Positions 4,115 to 10,994 of a stretch of 12,776 bases of DNA are shown here, piece after piece. The DNA comes from a virus. Its lineage: Duplodnaviria; Heunggongvirae; Uroviricota; Caudoviricetes. Positions within the stretch are counted from its first letter, which is position 1, and each line of letters opens with the position of its first letter. The notes beneath the pieces are model-generated. The model was not told the origin of the DNA. It searched no databases and worked only from the letters and a program-made list of their open reading frames with translations. The stretch is taken from the IMG/VR virus record IMGVR_UViG_2690316243_000002. The stretch is one strand, 5' to 3'. The translations under genes and the position numbers were made by a program.

Positions 4115-4564
4115 CTACTTAATGCACTGAGTGCGGATATACTCCTGTGCCCCTTCCAGTTGCATCTGCATCGTCATCAGCCGCTCTCTGAGGGTGAAAT
4201 AATCCCGTTCAGCGGTGTCTGCCAGTCGGGGGCTGGTTGCATTATCCACGCCGGAGGCGGTGGTGGCTTCACGCACTGACTGACAGACTGCTTTGATGTG
4301 CAACCGACGACGACCAGCGGCAACATCAGCGCGCAGAGTTTCATTTTCAGCTTTCGCATCAGCTAACTCCTTCGTGTATTTAGCATCGAGTGCATNCTGC
4401 TGCATGTCAGTAATGGTTGCGTTCGCCAGCTTCAGTTCTCTTGCGTTTTTGTCGCGCTGCTCTTTGTAGGTAATGGCGTTATCACGGTAATGATTAACAG
4501 CCCATGACAGGCGGACGATGATGCAGATAACCAGAGCGGAGATAATCGCGGTGACTCTGCTCAT
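4115..4564 (-). CDS. Rz: i-spanin Rz
   Basis: Near-colinear with lambda Rz as recalled ([17 protein letters not shown]..., [15 protein letters not shown]..., [28 protein letters not shown]...); the ATG at 4564 overlaps the R stop (ATGA). One N at 4396. Confidence 0.9.
4177..4359 (-). CDS. Rz1: o-spanin Rz1 lipoprotein, nested in the +1 frame of Rz
   Basis: 60-aa [27 protein letters not shown]... with a lipobox (VVGC) and a proline run (PPPPP); fully embedded within Rz as in lambda. Confidence 0.85.
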   Translation of the reverse strand: MRKLKMKLCALMLPLVVVGCTSKQSVSQCVKPPPPPAWIMQPAPDWQTPLNGIISPSESG

Positions 4565-5058
4565 TGCTGCCCCCACAAACAGACTTCACGCTCAATCTCA
4601 CGACGGGTCATCAGCCCTTTCCATTGCTTACCGCCAGCATATGTCCAGCGACGTAGCTGGTCACATGCGCCTTTGATATAGCCCTGGTTTATTTTGCGAA
4701 GAAGCGTCGATGTTCTGAAATTGCCAGCGCCCACGTTGTAAACGAACGAGTAAAGAGCGCCGCGCGTTGTTTCCGGTATATCGACTTTGATGTACGGGTT
4801 AATTTGTCTGGCGACAGTGGCAAGGTCTTTATTCAGGAGAGCTTTGCATTCTGCTTCGGTATACGTTTTACCAGGCATGATGTCTTTTCCGGTGTGTCCG
4901 TGACATACAGTCCATACACCAATGATATCTTTGTATGGTATGTAGCTGACACCTTCCAGACCATCGTTACCACCTGGGCCAGTGATTAACACAGATGCTA
5001 TAGCAACAGCCCCGCCACCAATAGCAACTGCAACAGCCTTGCGTAATGATGGCGACAT
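4561..5058 (-). CDS. R: SAR endolysin (phage-21 R-type lysozyme)
   Basis: 165-aa ORF with an N-terminal Gly/Ala-rich signal-anchor-release segment ([23 protein letters not shown]) followed by a lysozyme-like domain ([25 protein letters not shown]); its start overlaps the holin stop (TAATG at 5056-5060). Confidence 0.92.
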
Positions 5059-5269
5059 TATTCACCTCTCGCAGCCTTACNNNNNNNNNNNNNNNNNNNN
5101 NNNNNNNNGTCAGATAAGTCAGAAGCCCCAGAAGCAGACTTCCCAGCACACCAATCGCAGCCCACTGTGATGGACTGACCTGATCCAACCACTGCAAAAA
5201 CCAGTAGCCGGCACTGCCGGCGGAGGTGCCGTAGGCAATGCCCGTTGAAATTTTGTCCATGGATTTCAT
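5058..5269 (-). CDS. S: pinholin S (S21-type), interrupted by an assembly gap
   Basis: N-terminus [45 protein letters not shown]... with the dual-start motif (M-K-S-M) and GGAGGTGAGG upstream. The C-terminal ...KAARGE plus TAA (5058-5060) is in a different phase because of the 28-N run, so the true length is unknown. Confidence 0.8.
5081..5108. other. assembly gap (28 N)
   Basis: Run of n characters in the sequence; it breaks the holin reading frame. Confidence 0.99.
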
Positions 5270-5413
5270 AGCCTCACCTCCGCAAATAACGGATGGCGTA
5301 GTTTTACACTGAGAAATGAAAGGGATTTGAAAAGAAAAAAACGCAAAAGCGGGCGAAACGATATATACAGTAAGGAAAGCACTGAGGNNCCCCCCGACAG
5401 ACCTGTGCTATCG

Positions 5414-5449
5414 GAAAGAAAAAAGGCCATCAGCAAAACTCTGATGGCC
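5414..5449 (-). terminator. intrinsic terminator (minus strand) upstream of the lysis cassette
   Basis: Perfect 9-bp stem ggccatcag / ctgatggcc (5425-5449) with a 7-nt loop; the plus-strand A-run at 5414-5424 gives a T-run on the minus strand. Confidence 0.55.
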
Positions 5450-5559
5450 TGAATCACCTTTACCAATATTGTATGAAAAAACACGCACGACTAATTGACA
5501 ATAATTTTCATTTCCATTAAAAAAGATCGCGTAGCATTCTTAATTCATGAGGAACTTTA

Positions 5560-5624
5560 CCCGCCAGCAATCTGAGTAGCGAAAGCTGTTCATCCCCAAT
5601 GTTTTTGCTGGCGGGTCCTTTTTT
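5560..5624 (+). terminator. plus-strand structured element / terminator-like hairpin
   Basis: Perfect 11-bp inverted repeat cccgccagcaa (5560-5570) / ttgctggcggg (5605-5615) enclosing a 34-nt loop that contains agc-GAAA-gct, followed by tcc and six T (5619-5624) on the plus strand only. Confidence 0.35.
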
Positions 5625-6063
5625 CTACGGTCCTCCTCCCCGGAGGGGGGCATTTCATTATTTTTCTAATCGTTACTGGTGAGAAGGCGGAAGAAAAAGC
5701 CAGTTCTTCGCCCCTAAATAACAGCATGATTCCAGTCCATGCAAAATCTGATTTCCAGCTCACACATACCGAGCACTGTACAAAAAACCGCCAGCCAAGG
5801 CAGTTAAGAGTGTGTTCCCGGGGTTTGCTTAGAATATTTTGTAAGTTGTCCGAAGAGATATTTACAACACCAGAATGATGAATCATCAGTCCCCTGCCAG
5901 AGGTTCACTACGTAACCTGACCGACAATGCACCATTCTGGTGCTGAAAAAAGAGCACTGGAACTGCAACAAAACAACATCACAGAACAGGAGATGGTAAG
6001 GAGTCAGACATTCCCACACAATATTGTGTCAGTGCAAATAACAACCTTCGTCTCAAATCTCGC

Positions 6064-6138
<75 letters not shown>

Positions 6139-6141
6139 ATA

Positions 6142-6217
<76 letters not shown>

Positions 6218-6219
6218 GC

Positions 6220-6296
6220 TGGCCCACCACCGAGGACTCGAACCTCGCACCGTCAACTTAGAAGGTTGATGCTCTATCCGGATGAGCTAGTGGTGG
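6220..6296 (-). tRNA. tRNA-Arg (anticodon UCU)
   Basis: Reverse complement reads CCACCACTAGCTCATCCGGATAGAGCATCAACCTTCTAAGTTGACGGTGCGAGGTTCGAGTCCTCGGTGGTGGGCCA: anticodon stem TCAAC/GTTGA, loop CTTCTAA, T-loop TTCGAGT; unusual C1-G72 acceptor pair. Confidence 0.8.
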
Positions 6297-6297
6297 T

Positions 6298-6374
6298 TGG
6301 TGGCCCTTGCTGGACTTGAACCAGCGACCTGGCGATTATGAGTCGCTCGCTCTGACCAACTGAGCTAAAGGGCC
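6298..6374 (-). tRNA. tRNA-Ile2 (anticodon CAU, probable lysidine tRNA; Met not excluded)
   Basis: Reverse complement reads GGCCCTTTAGCTCAGTTGGTCAGAGCGAGCGACTCATAATCGCCAGGTCGCTGGTTCAAGTCCAGCAAGGGCCACCA: loop CTCATAA; the acceptor stem (C4, C5) and T-arm resemble host ileX rather than elongator tRNA-Met. Confidence 0.75.
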
Positions 6375-6563: not shown

Positions 6564-7118
6564 TCAAAAAGCAATAACTTTTTTCTCTATACCAAAAGCC
6601 ATAACCATTGGTTTGTACAAAATAAATTCTGCCACCTTTAGCCAATGCTCAATGCGTCTTTCACAGGTTCTTAAACTCCATTTCGGGTGTGCATCATTCA
6701 GCAGTTCAGCCATTTTGCGTTTGGTCATCCCCCGCCCCTCATACCGTTGCCGAAGGACGCTAATCAATCCTGGATGCTCTGCCAGCACCTCACTTATGAC
6801 CCGATCAATACATAACGCCTCTGCATCAGTACAATGCGCCAGCCAGCTCTTTTGCTTACCGTTAATCATATCCCGCAAAAAAGCCTCAAGTTCAGACTTG
6901 TTCAGACCTGCTTTTTTCATCCTCCGGAGCGCCTCGTTAATTGCCGTTTTTGTCAGCTTTTTAGAGGTCAACATCAGGTTAAACATATTCCCCGTCTTAC
7001 CGCCACCAATATACGACCAGCGCCCCCACATACGTAGTTTTCCCTGAATCCAGACACTTTCCAGCGTGGTGAGACGAAGGTGTTCTCCGCTTTTTCCTGT
7101 ATTCGTTGGGTAAATCAT
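6564..7118 (-). CDS. putative late-gene antiterminator, Q-like (second, longer type)
   Basis: ORF 6564..7238; the preferred start is ATG at 7118 (MIYPTNTGKSGEHLRL...) with AGGAGG 7 nt upstream, overlapping the stop of the upstream ORF (ATGA). It shares a W-G-x-W motif (LRMWGRWS) with the QuuD-like protein (ERWGAWA) and sits directly upstream of a terminator, the tRNA array and the lysis genes. Family assignment is uncertain. Confidence 0.5.
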   Translation of the reverse strand: MIYPTNTGKSGEHLRLTTLESVWIQGKLRMWGRWSYIGGGKTGNMFNLMLTSKKLTKTAINEALRRMKKAGLNKSELEAFLRDMINGKQKSWLAHCTDAEALCIDRVISEVLAEHPGLISVLRQRYEGRGMTKRKMAELLNDAHPKWSLRTCERRIEHWLKVAEFILYKPMVMAFGIEKKVIAF

Positions 7119-7372
7119 AAATATCCCTCCTTTCTCCAGATTTCTTGTGTGCGAAAAACACCTTCTGCATGCATCAGGCGTAATTCTTCTTTGGTGTAAT
7201 CGCTGGTTTTTACCCGCCCGTCGATTAAATCGTGGCACGAGCTACAGGCAATCGCTGCCTGCATATCGTGTGGCTTTATCGCTGTTCCGCACGTTCCCGC
7301 CAGTCGGTAATGCGCCAGCACAGACGTTTCCGGATCGTGATTGCAGTAGCCAGGAATTCTGACGGTGCACAT
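7115..7372 (-). CDS. DUF1364 / YbcO-like Cys-rich protein, probably N-terminally truncated
   Basis: 85-aa ORF MCTVRIPGYCNHDPETSVLAHYRLAG...ACSSCHDLIDGRVK...; DUF1364-like motifs as recalled. An in-frame TGA lies at ~7402 with no upstream start, and the IS fragment abuts the 5' side. Confidence 0.55.
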   Translation of the reverse strand: MCTVRIPGYCNHDPETSVLAHYRLAGTCGTAIKPHDMQAAIACSSCHDLIDGRVKTSDYTKEELRLMHAEGVFRTQEIWRKEGYL

Positions 7373-7658: not shown

Positions 7659-8477
7659 ATGTGTCAGGTATTTGGTGTATCCAGGAGCGGTTATTACAAC
7701 TGGGTACAGCATGAACCCTCAGACAGAAAACAAAGTGATGAGCGGCTAAAACTGGAGATTAAGGTGGCACATATCCGCACTCGCGAAACATATGGAACCC
7801 GGCGGCTCCAGACGGAGCTGGCAGAGAATGGCATCATCGTTGGTCGTGACCGACTGGCACGTCTTCGTAAGGAGCTAAGGCTACGCTGTAAGCAGAAACG
7901 CAAGTTCAGAGCGACTACGAACTCGAACCACAATCTGCCAGTTGCGCCAAATCTGCTGAACCAGACGTTCGCTCCTACAGCACCAAATCAGGTCTGGGTG
8001 GCGGACCTGACGTATGTTGCCACACAGGAGGGATGGTTGTACCTCGCTGGCATCAAAGATGTTTATACGTGCGAAATTGTCGGCTACGCCATGGGAGAGC
8101 GCATGACAAAAGAGCTGACAGGTAAAGCCCTGTTTATGGCGCTCAGGAGCCAGCGCCCACCTGCCGGGCTAATCCACCACTCTGATCGAGGTTCACAGTA
8201 CTGCGCATACGATTACCGGGTCATACAGGAGCAGTCTGGTCTGAAAACATCAATGTCGCGTAAAGGTAACTGTTACGACAACGCTCCGATGGAAAGCTTC
8301 TGGGGAACGCTGAAAAATGAGAGCCTGAGCCACTATCGTTTTAATAACCGGGATGAAGCCATCTCAGTAATACGGGAATACATTGAGATTTTCTACAATC
8401 GTCAGCGTCGTCACTCTCGTCTGGGGAATATCTCCCCGGCAGCCTTCAGGGAAAAATATCATCAGATGGCTGCTTAA
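7659..8477 (+). CDS. IS3-family transposase OrfB (DDE catalytic domain)
   Basis: 272-aa ORF with VWVADLTYV, HHSDRGSQY and YDNAPMESFW motifs (D, D, E); naturally expressed as an OrfAB fusion by -1 frameshifting at the A-run near 7572-7579. Confidence 0.9.
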   Translation: MCQVFGVSRSGYYNWVQHEPSDRKQSDERLKLEIKVAHIRTRETYGTRRLQTELAENGIIVGRDRLARLRKELRLRCKQKRKFRATTNSNHNLPVAPNLLNQTFAPTAPNQVWVADLTYVATQEGWLYLAGIKDVYTCEIVGYAMGERMTKELTGKALFMALRSQRPPAGLIHHSDRGSQYCAYDYRVIQEQSGLKTSMSRKGNCYDNAPMESFWGTLKNESLSHYRFNNRDEAISVIREYIEIFYNRQRRHSRLGNISPAAFREKYHQMAA

Positions 8478-8702
8478 AAAAAGAACAAATGGTAGTGTCC
8501 GCTATTGCCAGTACACCTCACACTCTATCCAACAAACCACCCACAGTTAATCGGAATAAAAGCAGAGTGCTTATGAATGATCGCACGCCCGAAGGTTAGT
8601 ATTTCTGCACAGCAATTTTGCAAAAAAAGGCGATCATTCATAACTTAAACGTCTTTCAGTCACTCCGGGATTTCCCATCATCGCAGACTGAAAGACTCTG
8701 AC

Positions 8703-8777
<75 letters not shown>

Positions 8778-8780
8778 ATA

Positions 8781-8856
<76 letters not shown>

Positions 8857-8858
8857 GC

Positions 8859-8935
8859 TGGCCCACCACCGAGGACTCGAACCTCGCACCGTCAACTTAG
8901 AAGGTTGATGCTCTATCCGGATGAGCTAGTGGTGG
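8859..8935 (-). tRNA. tRNA-Arg (anticodon UCU), copy 2
   Basis: Identical to 6220..6296 (offset 2639). Confidence 0.8.
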
Positions 8936-8936
8936 T

Positions 8937-9013
8937 TGGTGGCCCTTGCTGGACTTGAACCAGCGACCTGGCGATTATGAGTCGCTCGCTCTGACCAACT
9001 GAGCTAAAGGGCC
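8937..9013 (-). tRNA. tRNA-Ile2 (anticodon CAU), copy 2
   Basis: Identical to 6298..6374 (offset 2639). Confidence 0.75.
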
Positions 9014-9202: not shown

Positions 9203-9766
9203 TTAAAACCGCATCAACCGCTCCACCAGTTGCTCTTTACGGGCAACGATCCACCCGTGTTGCTCCAGATAAAATTTAAACCGTTCCAGAGTACATACCA
9301 TCGCATCGGCGGGTACCTTTTCCGTGAACTCAACCTGACCGTGTTTATCGAAGTGGCTCAGTAATGCGCATCCATCATTTTCGATAGATGTGTTTTGTGC
9401 CGCTGGTGGCTGTTTCTGGTTGAAATAACAGTCTTCCAGTTTTTCGAACACTTCCCACGCCTGATCGGTTTCGAGCATTTTGGCGTGACGGGCTGCGCCA
9501 CGTTCTGTCCAGAGGATGAGGGAGCGAACGTTACGGGCAATTTTCACAGAAACTCTTAAAGAGTTTTCGTTCTTCAACTCTCGTAACGCATCACCTTCTA
9601 TCAGGAAAAAATGTTTACCTTCTATAAACCGTTCTTTGTTTCGATTGAAATTGTTTGTCAAACGCTGGCGCTCTGTTCCGTACAAATCAGCCAGCAGCTC
9701 TGTTGTCATGACAGGAAGATGGTTATGCGTAAGTGACGGGAGTTTTTCAATAGACGTGCGATTCAT
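9203..9766 (-). CDS. ORF6N-domain protein (KilA-N/ORF6N-type DNA-binding domain; antirepressor-like), function unknown
   Basis: ORF 9203..9964; the preferred start is ATG at 9766 (MNRTSIEKL...) with AAGGA 7 nt upstream (the alternative ATG at 9772 has too short a spacing). The N-terminal block LPVMTTELLADLYGTERQRLTNNFNRNKERFIEGKHFFLIEGDALRELK matches the ORF6N pattern as recalled; the C-terminal ~70 aa are unassigned. Confidence 0.6.
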   Translation of the reverse strand: MNRTSIEKLPSLTHNHLPVMTTELLADLYGTERQRLTNNFNRNKERFIEGKHFFLIEGDALRELKNENSLRVSVKIARNVRSLILWTERGAARHAKMLETDQAWEVFEKLEDCYFNQKQPPAAQNTSIENDGCALLSHFDKHGQVEFTEKVPADAMVCTLERFKFYLEQHGWIVARKEQLVERLMRF

Positions 9767-9972
9767 AGACATGTCCTTTCGAATATTTTGATTTACCCCT
9801 TTTGAGAGGGTGACCGGGCGCTCAAAACCGTCGAAAGTCGGCGGGCGTATTTCCATTGCTGGTATTGTATTAGCCGCACACCCGGTCATAAACCAAGAAT
9901 TCTGGACACAAAAAAACCACATGGCTATCGGGTGTGGATACCGCTTTCGAGGTGTTTTGAGCACCGCGGGGA

Positions 9973-10001
9973 AATGTAAACTGCAAACCTGAAACTGTCA
10001 A
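9973..10001 (-). promoter_or_regulatory. candidate sigma70 promoter for the ORF6N-domain gene
   Basis: Minus strand: TTGACA (10001..9996), 17-nt spacer, TACATT (9978..9973), about 200 nt upstream of the ATG. Confidence 0.4.
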
Positions 10002-10125
10002 CACCGTCAGGTTCCAATCATCGGGTGGTGAGACGCACAGGGTTGGAACTACCGGGAAACCGACCGGCGAGCTTTTCAGCTCCCCCATGCGCCCCACCAT
10101 AATTCAGATGTGCGCGTGCATACGA

Positions 10126-10150
10126 CAATAAAAAACACGCTCGCGGCGTG
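10126..10150 (-). terminator. candidate tR' (terminator of the short late leader transcript)
   Basis: Minus strand ACACGC-CGCGA-GCGTGT followed by TTTTTTATTG, about 70 nt downstream of the candidate pR'. Confidence 0.55.
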
Positions 10151-10211
10151 TGTCTGTCGCGGTCTCTATCCGGGGTTCCAATCCCGACGCCAGATTTTGC
10201 TGGCGCGTGAG

Positions 10212-10241
10212 GAATATAGCCCCGGACAATGTGTCTGGTCA
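10212..10241 (-). promoter_or_regulatory. candidate late promoter pR' (Q-utilisation region)
   Basis: Minus strand: TTGACC (10241..10236), 18-nt spacer, TATATT (10217..10212), starting 6 nt after the Q stop codon. Confidence 0.5.
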
Positions 10242-10246
10242 AGCAC

Positions 10247-10633
10247 CTACATAATTCGCTCTACGTATCTGTCCATCTCCAGCCGGATATCAAGCATCAT
10301 CAACATGCCATCAATAACCCCTTCCGCTTTCTGCAGGCGCTTGCCAATACAGGTATCCGAACACCCATGTTTCCGTGCCAGACTCATAAAAGTCATTCCA
10401 CCTACGTAATAATCCACCAGCAAATCGTGCAAATCCTGATTTTTCTTGTTCAACCGGGCCATACAGCCACAAATTATCATTGCATCATCATCAGAACACT
10501 GAGGGCGTGATTTCACTTTCGACGGAATTAACCCTTTAAAACCAGCAGCGATCGACGCCCAGGATACATCTTCATGAGTGTTTGCAGCCCAAGCCCCCCA
10601 CCGTTCCATAACCTGCTGAATATCACGCGCCAT
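10247..10633 (-). CDS. late-gene antiterminator Q (QuuD / phage-82-like family)
   Basis: ORF 10247..10654; the preferred start is ATG at 10633 ([34 protein letters not shown]...) with AGGTGA upstream. Resembles E. coli DLP12 QuuD as recalled, with the same RusA-then-Q synteny. Confidence 0.75.
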
Positions 10634-10994
10634 CGTTATCACCTGTGATTTCATAAATCTTCACGCCCAGTCGCCCACCAGGAACGAGCTGACCGCGCAC
10701 AATATTGATTTCATCAAACTGCTCGTCGTCTATGAGTAGTCCGGCATGCGTCAGCGCATCCAGTGGTGCTTTCAGGATATTGTCCAGGTCACGACGGCGC
10801 TTATCCGGTGGCTCTGCAATAATCTTTATCGCCAGCCTTCCGGACAGGTTTAATTTCAGCCGCTGCTGGCGAACAATTAGCGTCACATCACGGCGATAAC
10901 GCTCACCAACTTTTGATACAAAATATGTGCTGCCACGACGTCGCCAGTAAGTATTCACCGTCGGCGGATAAGGTAAAATAAACTCATGGCGCAT
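10623..10994 (-). CDS. rusA: Holliday junction resolvase RusA
   Basis: 123-aa ORF with RusA hallmarks ([14 protein letters not shown]..., [32 protein letters not shown]..., [11 protein letters not shown]). Confidence 0.9.

Follow-up and report, generated by a model that had tools for sequence, protein, structure and literature searches.

In pathogenic Escherichia coli, small RNAs (sRNAs) encoded by prophages, such as Esr41, AgvB/AsxR and PasA-D, tie horizontally acquired elements to the core circuits that govern iron uptake, motility and virulence. Esr41 (EcOnc14) is an Hfq-dependent sRNA of the enterohemorrhagic E. coli (EHEC) island SpLE1 that represses iron-uptake mRNAs; its targets are chuA, cirA and bfr (PMC5286369). 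PasA and PasC have been validated by northern blotting and are Hfq-dependent (Pearl Mizrahi et al., PMC8550237), and Tree et al. reported convergent sRNA genes at the moron site downstream of pR' (PMC4104026); as such genes were described at this site in 2014, this kind of element is not novel. Here we describe a candidate of the same kind in a stretch of DNA of 12,776 nucleotides (IMG/VR record IMGVR_UViG_2690316243_000002), referred to below as the window, which covers the part of a lambdoid prophage that holds late control and lysis; its genes lie on the minus strand. The candidate, called the unit throughout, occupies positions 5494-5624 and would be read from the plus strand, in the spacer between a tRNA array and a holin gene.

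We read the unit, with a probability of about 0.6, as a stand-alone gene predicted to encode an sRNA of about 95 nt, which would be expressed in the lysogen and would probably act in trans. Judged by its sequence features, it is an undescribed relative of the Esr41/Pas group, that is, of the Hfq-type sRNAs of the moron site. We infer its expression, its 5' end, its binding to Hfq and its action in trans.

The predicted promoter, RNA and terminator

The unit opens with the box ATTGACAATAAT (5494-5505, plus strand), which begins with ATTGACAA (5494-5501) and holds the -35 hexamer TTGACA (5495-5500), located 59 nt upstream of a perfect inverted repeat. After a spacer of 17 nt follows a weak candidate -10 element, TAAAAA (5518-5523, plus strand), which aligns with TAGAAA of an Esr41-like unit found in prophage PP4 of strain E2348/69 (the PP4 unit, described below). 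The hexamer, the spacer and the weak -10 element, about 60 nt upstream of the hairpin, had already been pointed out in a first-pass annotation of the window, and all of them can be read from the sequence as stated there. Based on this promoter geometry, we would place the 5' end of the predicted sRNA near 5530 (+/-5 nt) and its 3' end in the U-run (5619-5624), resulting in a plus-strand RNA of about 95 nt (5530-5624). This segment folds with -30.9 kcal/mol (z = -3.59), and none of 200 shuffled sequences was equally stable.

Just before the terminator the plus strand carries the conserved block UUCAUGAGGAA (5545-5555), in which 10 of 11 positions are invariant among the variants compared below and which may be regarded as a candidate seed or Hfq contact. 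In the minimum-energy fold this block pairs partly and weakly with upstream bases, and in the centroid fold it is unpaired. A possible 5' hairpin at 5529-5535, for which one compensatory change from G-C to A-U was seen between variant groups, was set aside, since it is broken in two other variants and is not predicted by RNAalifold.

The 3' part of the unit is a branched terminator hairpin (5559-5616, plus strand) composed of an outer 12-bp stem and an inner 8-bp stem with a GAAA loop. The arms of the outer inverted repeat, ACCCGCCAGCAA (5559-5570) and TTGCTGGCGGGT (5605-5616), are 100% complementary and lie 34 nt apart; the first-pass annotation had reported a perfect repeat of 11 bp, and it is indeed perfect, its length being 12 bp. 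In 300 dinucleotide-preserving shuffles of 5270-6100, with loops of up to 60 nt, the longest perfect repeat was 11 nt (in five shuffles), and a repeat of 12 bp was obtained in none. The inner stem is formed by UGAGUAGC (5573-5580) and GCUGUUCA (5585-5592), 8 bp closed by the loop GAAA (5581-5584), in agreement with the GAAA-capped internal hairpin noticed earlier. The hairpin alone folds with -28.4 kcal/mol (z = -5.45). It is followed, after CC, by the U6 tail TTTTTT (5619-5624, plus strand), with at least five T in every variant; the minus-strand side of the hairpin continues as TAAAGTTCC and has no U-run, so the T-run is confined to the plus strand, as had been claimed.

With a 12-bp stem containing seven G-C pairs, a 2-nt gap and U6, the structure has the composition of an intrinsic terminator, defined as a G+C-rich stem followed by at least five U. 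Its loop is too long for a simple terminator scan and is comparable to the loops of PasA (17 nt) and of the PP4 unit (18 nt). By analogy with such sRNAs, the U6 tail would double as a candidate Hfq-binding 3' end.

If this reading is correct, the unit would be a self-contained "RNA moron" in the lambdoid cargo site, placed on the plus strand and opposite to the late (lysis) operon. A sigma-70-type promoter of the composition given above, with ATTGACAA as the -35 box, the 17-nt spacer and the weak, A-rich TAAAAA, would start the RNA near 5530; a 5' part of about 30 nt, predicted to be largely unstructured, would hold UUCAUGAGGAA; and the hairpin 5559-5616 together with U6 would serve as the intrinsic terminator and also form the 3' module that binds Hfq, as is the case for other enterobacterial sRNAs. 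Since the unit would have its own promoter and its own terminator, expression from the repressed prophage is expected. The RNA would pair in trans with host or island mRNAs or sRNAs, like Esr41, PasA/PasC and AgvB/AsxR, and on induction the head-on, Q-modified late transcription would cross the unit and shut it off.

Distribution, conservation and alternative readings

Nine complete E. coli genomes match the spacer 5390-6063 at 99-100% identity, and in them the annotation pipeline PGAP places nothing between tRNA-Gly and the holin gene. Of 5426 complete E. coli genomes, 1427 (~26%) carry a module corresponding to 5392-5764 with 84-88% identity, at 915 chromosomal and 643 plasmid places; the inverted repeat is conserved in related prophages. 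Carriers of the unit include strains CFSAN029787 (NZ_CP011416 18189-18399), IHE3034, APEC O18 and APEC O78. In intact prophages the neighbour of the unit is a class II holin gene, and the unit points away from it; among 58 collected copies there are 37 in which the holin starts on the opposite strand, 186-201 nt from the inner hairpin loop. In ExPEC (extraintestinal pathogenic E. coli) islands the order is papI, IS3, an Rz fragment, the unit and ISL3, with neither a holin nor a lysozyme gene; here the unit is located ~2.2 kb from papI and is intact while the neighbouring late-strand terminator has decayed. The two ColV-type plasmids that were retrieved and strain R1 have the unit in the orientation of iss, a serum-survival gene, at a distance of ~450-550 bp. 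When scans were anchored on the inner loop, E. coli and Shigella were the only taxa with the unit among 185,579 species representatives, and 45 contigs of IMG/VR with nearly identical hairpins were retrieved. A degenerate promoter-box scan of IMG/VR yielded mostly random matches and was used only after filtering.

The ColV-type plasmids (L011 and L012 in our collection) and two further loci (L002 and L008) carry a remnant of a lambdoid lysis cassette consisting of iss, Rz/Rz1 fragments, the unit and an insertion sequence (IS) element. An IS1 insertion inside the hairpin cuts the unit in L012.

Variation was analyzed in ten distinct variants of the unit. The hexamer TTGACA is invariant in all ten, and both stems are invariant except for two rare single-base changes in the outer stem, one creating an A.C mismatch (in a ColV-type plasmid copy) and the other a G.U pair. 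Only two of 40 paired columns are variable, as compared with five of the 18 unpaired columns of the hairpin (p = 0.025) and 16 of the 37 columns of the 5' region (p = 9e-5). To judge by these substitutions, the hairpin structure is under purifying selection, unproven by compensatory change. Three features favour the plus strand: the one-sided U-run, the orientation of the invariant -35 box and two invariant G.U pairs of the inner stem, which exist on the plus strand only and whose minus-strand counterparts would be A.C mismatches.

Several observations weigh against the unit being an sRNA gene. The candidate -10 element matches the consensus at four of six positions, lacks the final T and is not listed by a consensus promoter scan. 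The start site is uncertain because a second -10-like element exists, TAGCAT (5532-5537), in which T, A, A and T are invariant across the variants and which has no -35 partner; its use would shorten the RNA to ~80 nt. The 34-nt interior of the terminator exceeds that of typical intrinsic terminators, a ColV-type plasmid copy carries the A.C mismatch in the outer stem, and 643 of the matches are on plasmids. None of 50,697 deposited phage genomes contains the unit, and its family has little depth and is restricted to E. coli and Shigella. None of the 25 predicted consensus pairs, those of the terminator hairpin included, has changed on both sides; with no covariation and so shallow a family, the conservation of the stems alone cannot separate a constraint on RNA from a constraint on DNA. 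A search of the whole window against Rfam at the gathering threshold gave no match in the spacer, and at E <= 10 over 5270-6100 there was none for the unit either, Esr41, AgvB, AsxR and STnc100 included, so that the covariance search suggested in the first-pass annotation assigned it to no family. A covariance model of PasA/PasC (model R1, built from nine variants) scored 7.9 bits on the window (E = 1.4), at 5556-5622 and with the terminator only. Finally, a full-text literature search with the stem and loop sequences returned no relevant paper.

Among the other explanations, a bare terminator survives best, although we consider it unlikely. The hairpin and T6 would then merely end or insulate plus-strand transcription and the short transcript would be functionless; as an insulator, it would block stray anti-late transcription, for example from bor/iss-type genes or from the conserved divergent promoter, before the tRNA genes and Q/pR'. 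The hairpin does have the form of an intrinsic terminator, and in the ColV plasmids and strain R1 the unit is situated downstream of iss at the distance and in the orientation given above. A bare terminator, however, needs neither an invariant TTGACA ~60 nt upstream nor an 11-nt block in front of the stem. The inner hairpin and its loop are conserved well beyond the needs of termination, and the homologous units of E2348/69 give abundant Hfq-bound RNA with specific partners. Should the unit not be expressed, what is left would be a conserved terminator within a phage spacer, of minor interest.

The first-pass annotation had gone further and proposed a plus-strand RNA of ~100 nt that is antisense to the late transcript. 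The comparative evidence supports an RNA with its own promoter and terminator well, but does not favour its role as a regulator of the late transcript. Acting in cis, by pairing or by head-on interference, the RNA would tune holin expression and the timing of lysis. Its whole length would be complementary to the stretch of the late transcript that lies ~260-355 nt upstream of the holin start codon, linkage of the unit to class II holin genes is tight, and induction inevitably brings convergent transcription. On the other hand, the overlap concerns a leader that is non-coding, at a large distance from the ribosome-binding site of the holin gene; the ExPEC copies are intact despite the loss of the holin gene, the lysozyme gene and any late promoter; and action in trans is what the analogues Esr41, PasA/PasC and AgvB/AsxR show (PMC5286369, PMC8550237, PMC4104026). 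Since the unit outlasts the holin gene and the late promoter, and since its analogues act in trans, action in cis, though geometrically possible, is less likely than action in trans, and we regard it as quite improbable as the function of the unit.

Still harder to sustain is a role of the palindrome in DNA, as a protein-binding or recombination site at a mosaic joint, or on the late strand, as a processing or stabilising hairpin in the leader of the late mRNA; we take it to be very improbable. Stems that are invariant yet without covariation are equally compatible with a constraint on DNA, the minus strand folds too (-28.4 kcal/mol, z = -2.3, versus -31.9 kcal/mol for the plus strand), and the homology with ExPEC-type relatives (L002, L007 and others) stops ~150 nt to the right, near 5764. 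Arms of 12 bp with 34 bp between them nevertheless do not resemble known operators or core recombination sites, the inner hairpin needs G.U pairs that are present only in the plus-strand RNA, the U-run is one-sided, and the substitutions fall at unpaired positions.

The open reading frames (ORFs) of the spacer are short (5590-5886 and 5804-6019 on the minus strand, 5726-5878 on the plus strand), and the minus-strand frames over the hairpin change or break between variants; the initial statement that no credible ORF exists between the tRNA array (6064-6374) and the holin gene (4967-5269) is confirmed. A decayed or unrecognised late-strand protein-coding gene is hardly credible: PGAP calls proteins over the unit in some genomes (WP_000502162.1 and WP_050939672.1; 63 aa and 89 aa) and in several variants one frame of the minus strand stays open over ~55 codons, but these products are hypothetical only and none is called in the nine near-identical genomes, the start codons vary or are missing, the window and the 99%-identical genomes carry a frameshifting extra A and a stop codon in the late-strand frame, the differences between variants mostly alter the amino acid, and the only local ORF that was scanned, 5590-5886, has no Pfam match.

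A plus-strand mini-ORF of ten codons (5548-5580; ATG AGG AAC TTT ACC CGC CAG CAA TCT GAG TAG) is open in every variant, and the G-to-A change in the stem of the ColV copy is synonymous in it (CAG to CAA). It was set aside as a coding sequence (CDS), being without a ribosome-binding site and with most other differences altering the amino acid.

The surrounding prophage

On the holin side, the unit is followed by a late-strand intrinsic terminator (5415-5450, minus strand), whose ten-pair stem runs from 5450 to 5424 and precedes a T-run. This terminator, between the unit and the holin gene, belongs to the context and not to the sRNA; it had been recognized in the first-pass annotation, and similar ones are found upstream of class II holins in the E2348/69 prophages PP2, PP4 and PP6. 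Weak minus-strand Rfam hits at 5415-5510 were discarded as merely reflecting it. The holin gene (4967-5269, minus strand) is of the phage-21 type, class II, and the genes for lysozyme, Rz and terminase lie beyond it.

In the other direction, a late-strand sRNA convergent with the unit was sought in 5626-5830, where the fold is no better than that of shuffled sequences (z = +0.9). A strongly conserved block, CCCTAAATAACAGCATG..CAGTCCATGCAAAATCTGATTT (5722-5765), is common to all relatives, and a terminator-like hairpin with a T-run is located on the minus strand at 5786-5805, ~260 nt after tRNA-Gly; these two elements could represent further terminators of the late strand or an RNA 3' end on that strand. 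A hairpin of ~90 nt directly downstream of tRNA-Gly, in the late direction, is formed by a long imperfect inverted repeat (5861-5949; 31-nt arms, 77% complementary), and microRNA-like Rfam hits at 5859-5951 are chance matches to it. The segment 5859-6035 shows 71% similarity to phage SerU-LTIIb.

The tRNA array adjoining the spacer (Met-Arg-Thr-Gly, 6064-6374) is the second of two; the upstream copy (8703-9013) is followed by an IS3-type element. Aligned over 6058-6357 and 8697-8996, the arrays are 99% identical copies 2639 bp apart, and they flank an IS3-family transposase gene (7659-8477, plus strand) and a second Q-like gene (6564-7238) with matches to DUF1133 and antitermQ. The duplication suggests recombination between two prophages or an assembly join. 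Two perfect inverted repeats, one with 14-bp arms 45 nt apart (8571-8643), which is the longest perfect repeat in the window, and one with 11-bp arms 24 nt apart (8651-8696), lie just downstream of the array at 8697-8996 and adjoin the IS element.

Further upstream, the minus strand encodes RusA (10623-10994), the antiterminator Q (10247-10654) and a block of isrK/C4 RNAs with an ORF6N antirepressor (9203-10219). The RNA matches, all above the Rfam gathering score, are located just downstream of Q (9804-10219, minus strand) and comprise isrK (77.5 bits), sRNA-Xcc1, C4 antisense RNA and the c4-a1b1 target; they are followed by the ORF 9203-9964, which encodes the ORF6N-domain antirepressor. The segment 9203-10219 is a P1/P7 immI-like, IsrK-type module between Q and the tRNA array.

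Runs of N occur at 4396, 5081-5108 (28 bases, inside the holin gene), 5388-5389 and 7382. The NN at 5388-5389 is a joint at which the affinity of the sequence switches, the left side resembling a different set of phages (phi467-type) and the right side CFSAN029787-type prophages. Given the N runs and this switch, the window is a draft or mosaic sequence.

Comparison with known prophage sRNAs

AgvB and AsxR (RF02702, RF02703) resemble the unit in that their genes occupy the cargo site, with Q/pR' on one side and the lysis genes on the other; AsxR is antisense to the late (stx2) transcript. Their evolution is modular, with conserved 3' parts and variable 5' parts. They differ from the unit in their length of 51-60 nt and in their unrelated sequences, which have no Rfam match to the window; the conserved 3' region of ~42 nt, ending in ..GUAUCUCAUGCUAUUGCCCGAACCCAUUCGGGC and a U-run, was not found in the unit.

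PapR of strain UTI89 is likewise an sRNA of prophages and pathogenicity islands in pathogenic E. coli, and it was considered since the ExPEC copies of the unit are near papI. Identity with PapR was ruled out by its primer-derived sequence, which starts with CGGGCUGAAGUCCGG, ends with ...GCGCGGGCUUUUUUU and is unrelated to that of the unit. An sRNA in the intergenic region E2348C_1409/1408 (EcOnc08/21/42; L264 2296-2478; NC_011601 ~1444795-1444978, minus strand), which starts with CGGGCTGAAGTCCGGAAGTT and ends with ..GCGCGGGCTTTTTTT, matches the UTI89 PapR cloning primers; this sRNA and PapR appear to be one sRNA family with two names.

PasA and PasC (EcOnc51/52), which occur in lambdoid prophages of enteropathogenic E. 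coli (EPEC) and EHEC, are closer. In the E2348/69 prophages both are located between a cargo gene and a class II holin gene on the anti-late strand, and the window unit has the same site and the same orientation. Also similar are the TTGACA -35 hexamer, the A-rich weak -10 element, the 3' U-run and the GCCAGC...GCTGGC terminator stem with a long loop, which in PasA contains CGAAAG. PasB lies elsewhere, in the tail region of its prophage. Membership in the PasA/PasC family was ruled out by the insignificant score of the covariance model and by the four published Pas northern probes, which are absent from the window even with seven mismatches. The similarity of the 5' part of the unit to PasA, PasC or the PP4 unit is marginal (z from -0.7 to 3.2; ~0 to 2.6 for the PP4 unit).

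The PP4 unit (NC_011601 1060740->1060614; L006 3115-3241, minus strand) scores 32.3 bits with the Rfam model of Esr41 (E = 5e-4) and is a diverged Esr41-like sRNA mis-annotated as CDS E2348C_1013. It starts with 12 nt identical to the box of the window, ATTGACAATAAT, and ends with CGCCAGCGCAGA...UCUGCGCUGGCU-U6, the terminator being CGCCAGC...GCTGGC-U6. Fragments at 1060613-1060672 from RIL-seq (ligation and sequencing of interacting RNAs), labelled CDS E2348C_1013, are listed in Table S3 of PMC8550237 with a read total of ~808,000. In these data they are the second, sRNA-side partner in chimeras with the entC 5' untranslated region (5'UTR; 263), the nlpD-rpoS region (537) and the dnaK 5'UTR (PMC8550237). 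The fragments coincide exactly with the 3' end of the PP4 unit, on its strand, and the abundant Hfq-bound EPEC RNA carrying this CDS label is thereby identified as an Esr41-like sRNA. It is unnamed in the published Pas papers. Like the window unit, the PP4 unit measures ~125-130 nt from the -35 hexamer to the U-run (genuine Esr41, ~105 nt), lies just beyond a late-strand terminator that precedes a class II holin gene, and is oriented away from that gene.

Genuine Esr41 of O157:H7 has ATTGACAA upstream and a stem CGCCGGCA/UGCUGGCG followed by U7. In the window unit the same box is combined with the stem CGCCAGCA (5562-5569)/UGCUGGCG (5606-5613) and T6, that is, with the same 8-bp core CGCC(A/G)GCA, which gives the Esr41-type arrangement of a ATTGACAA box, a CGCCRGCA/UGCUGGCG stem and a U-run. 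The window-type unit also persists in island remnants, as Esr41 does. It does not reach the Esr41 gathering score of 102 bits (RF02676), and the body of Esr41 is missing from it: neither the 5' hairpin GAUGC..GCAUC nor the single-stranded UUUUCUCC, the GGGG/CCC middle hairpin or the segment UUUUCUCCAUGGGG is present. Where Esr41 has its body, the window RNA carries GCGUAGCAUUCUUAAUUCAUGAGGAACUUU, and unlike Esr41 it has UUCAUGAGGAA and a 34-nt structured insert in the terminator. Since the body differs and there is no Rfam match to Esr41, the targets of the window unit are expected to differ from those of Esr41.

If the prediction is true, the unit adds to these sRNAs an undescribed member with a different seed region. 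Its distribution is unlike that of the EHEC and EPEC sRNAs, as it is found in ExPEC pathogenicity islands and, beside iss, on ColV-type plasmids of avian and human extraintestinal strains. Esr41, the PP4 RNA of E2348/69 and the window unit have their bookends in common and differ in their interiors. More tentatively, then, the site upstream of the holin gene might be a cassette-like sRNA locus with fixed bookends, ATTGACAA at one end and CGCCRGCA/UGCUGGCG-U at the other, and a swappable seed interior, in which the window unit would be a third body type with host targets of its own relevant to extraintestinal virulence. A common promoter box and terminator stem with differing interiors, as in these three RNAs, offer a testable picture of how sRNA seeds diversify.

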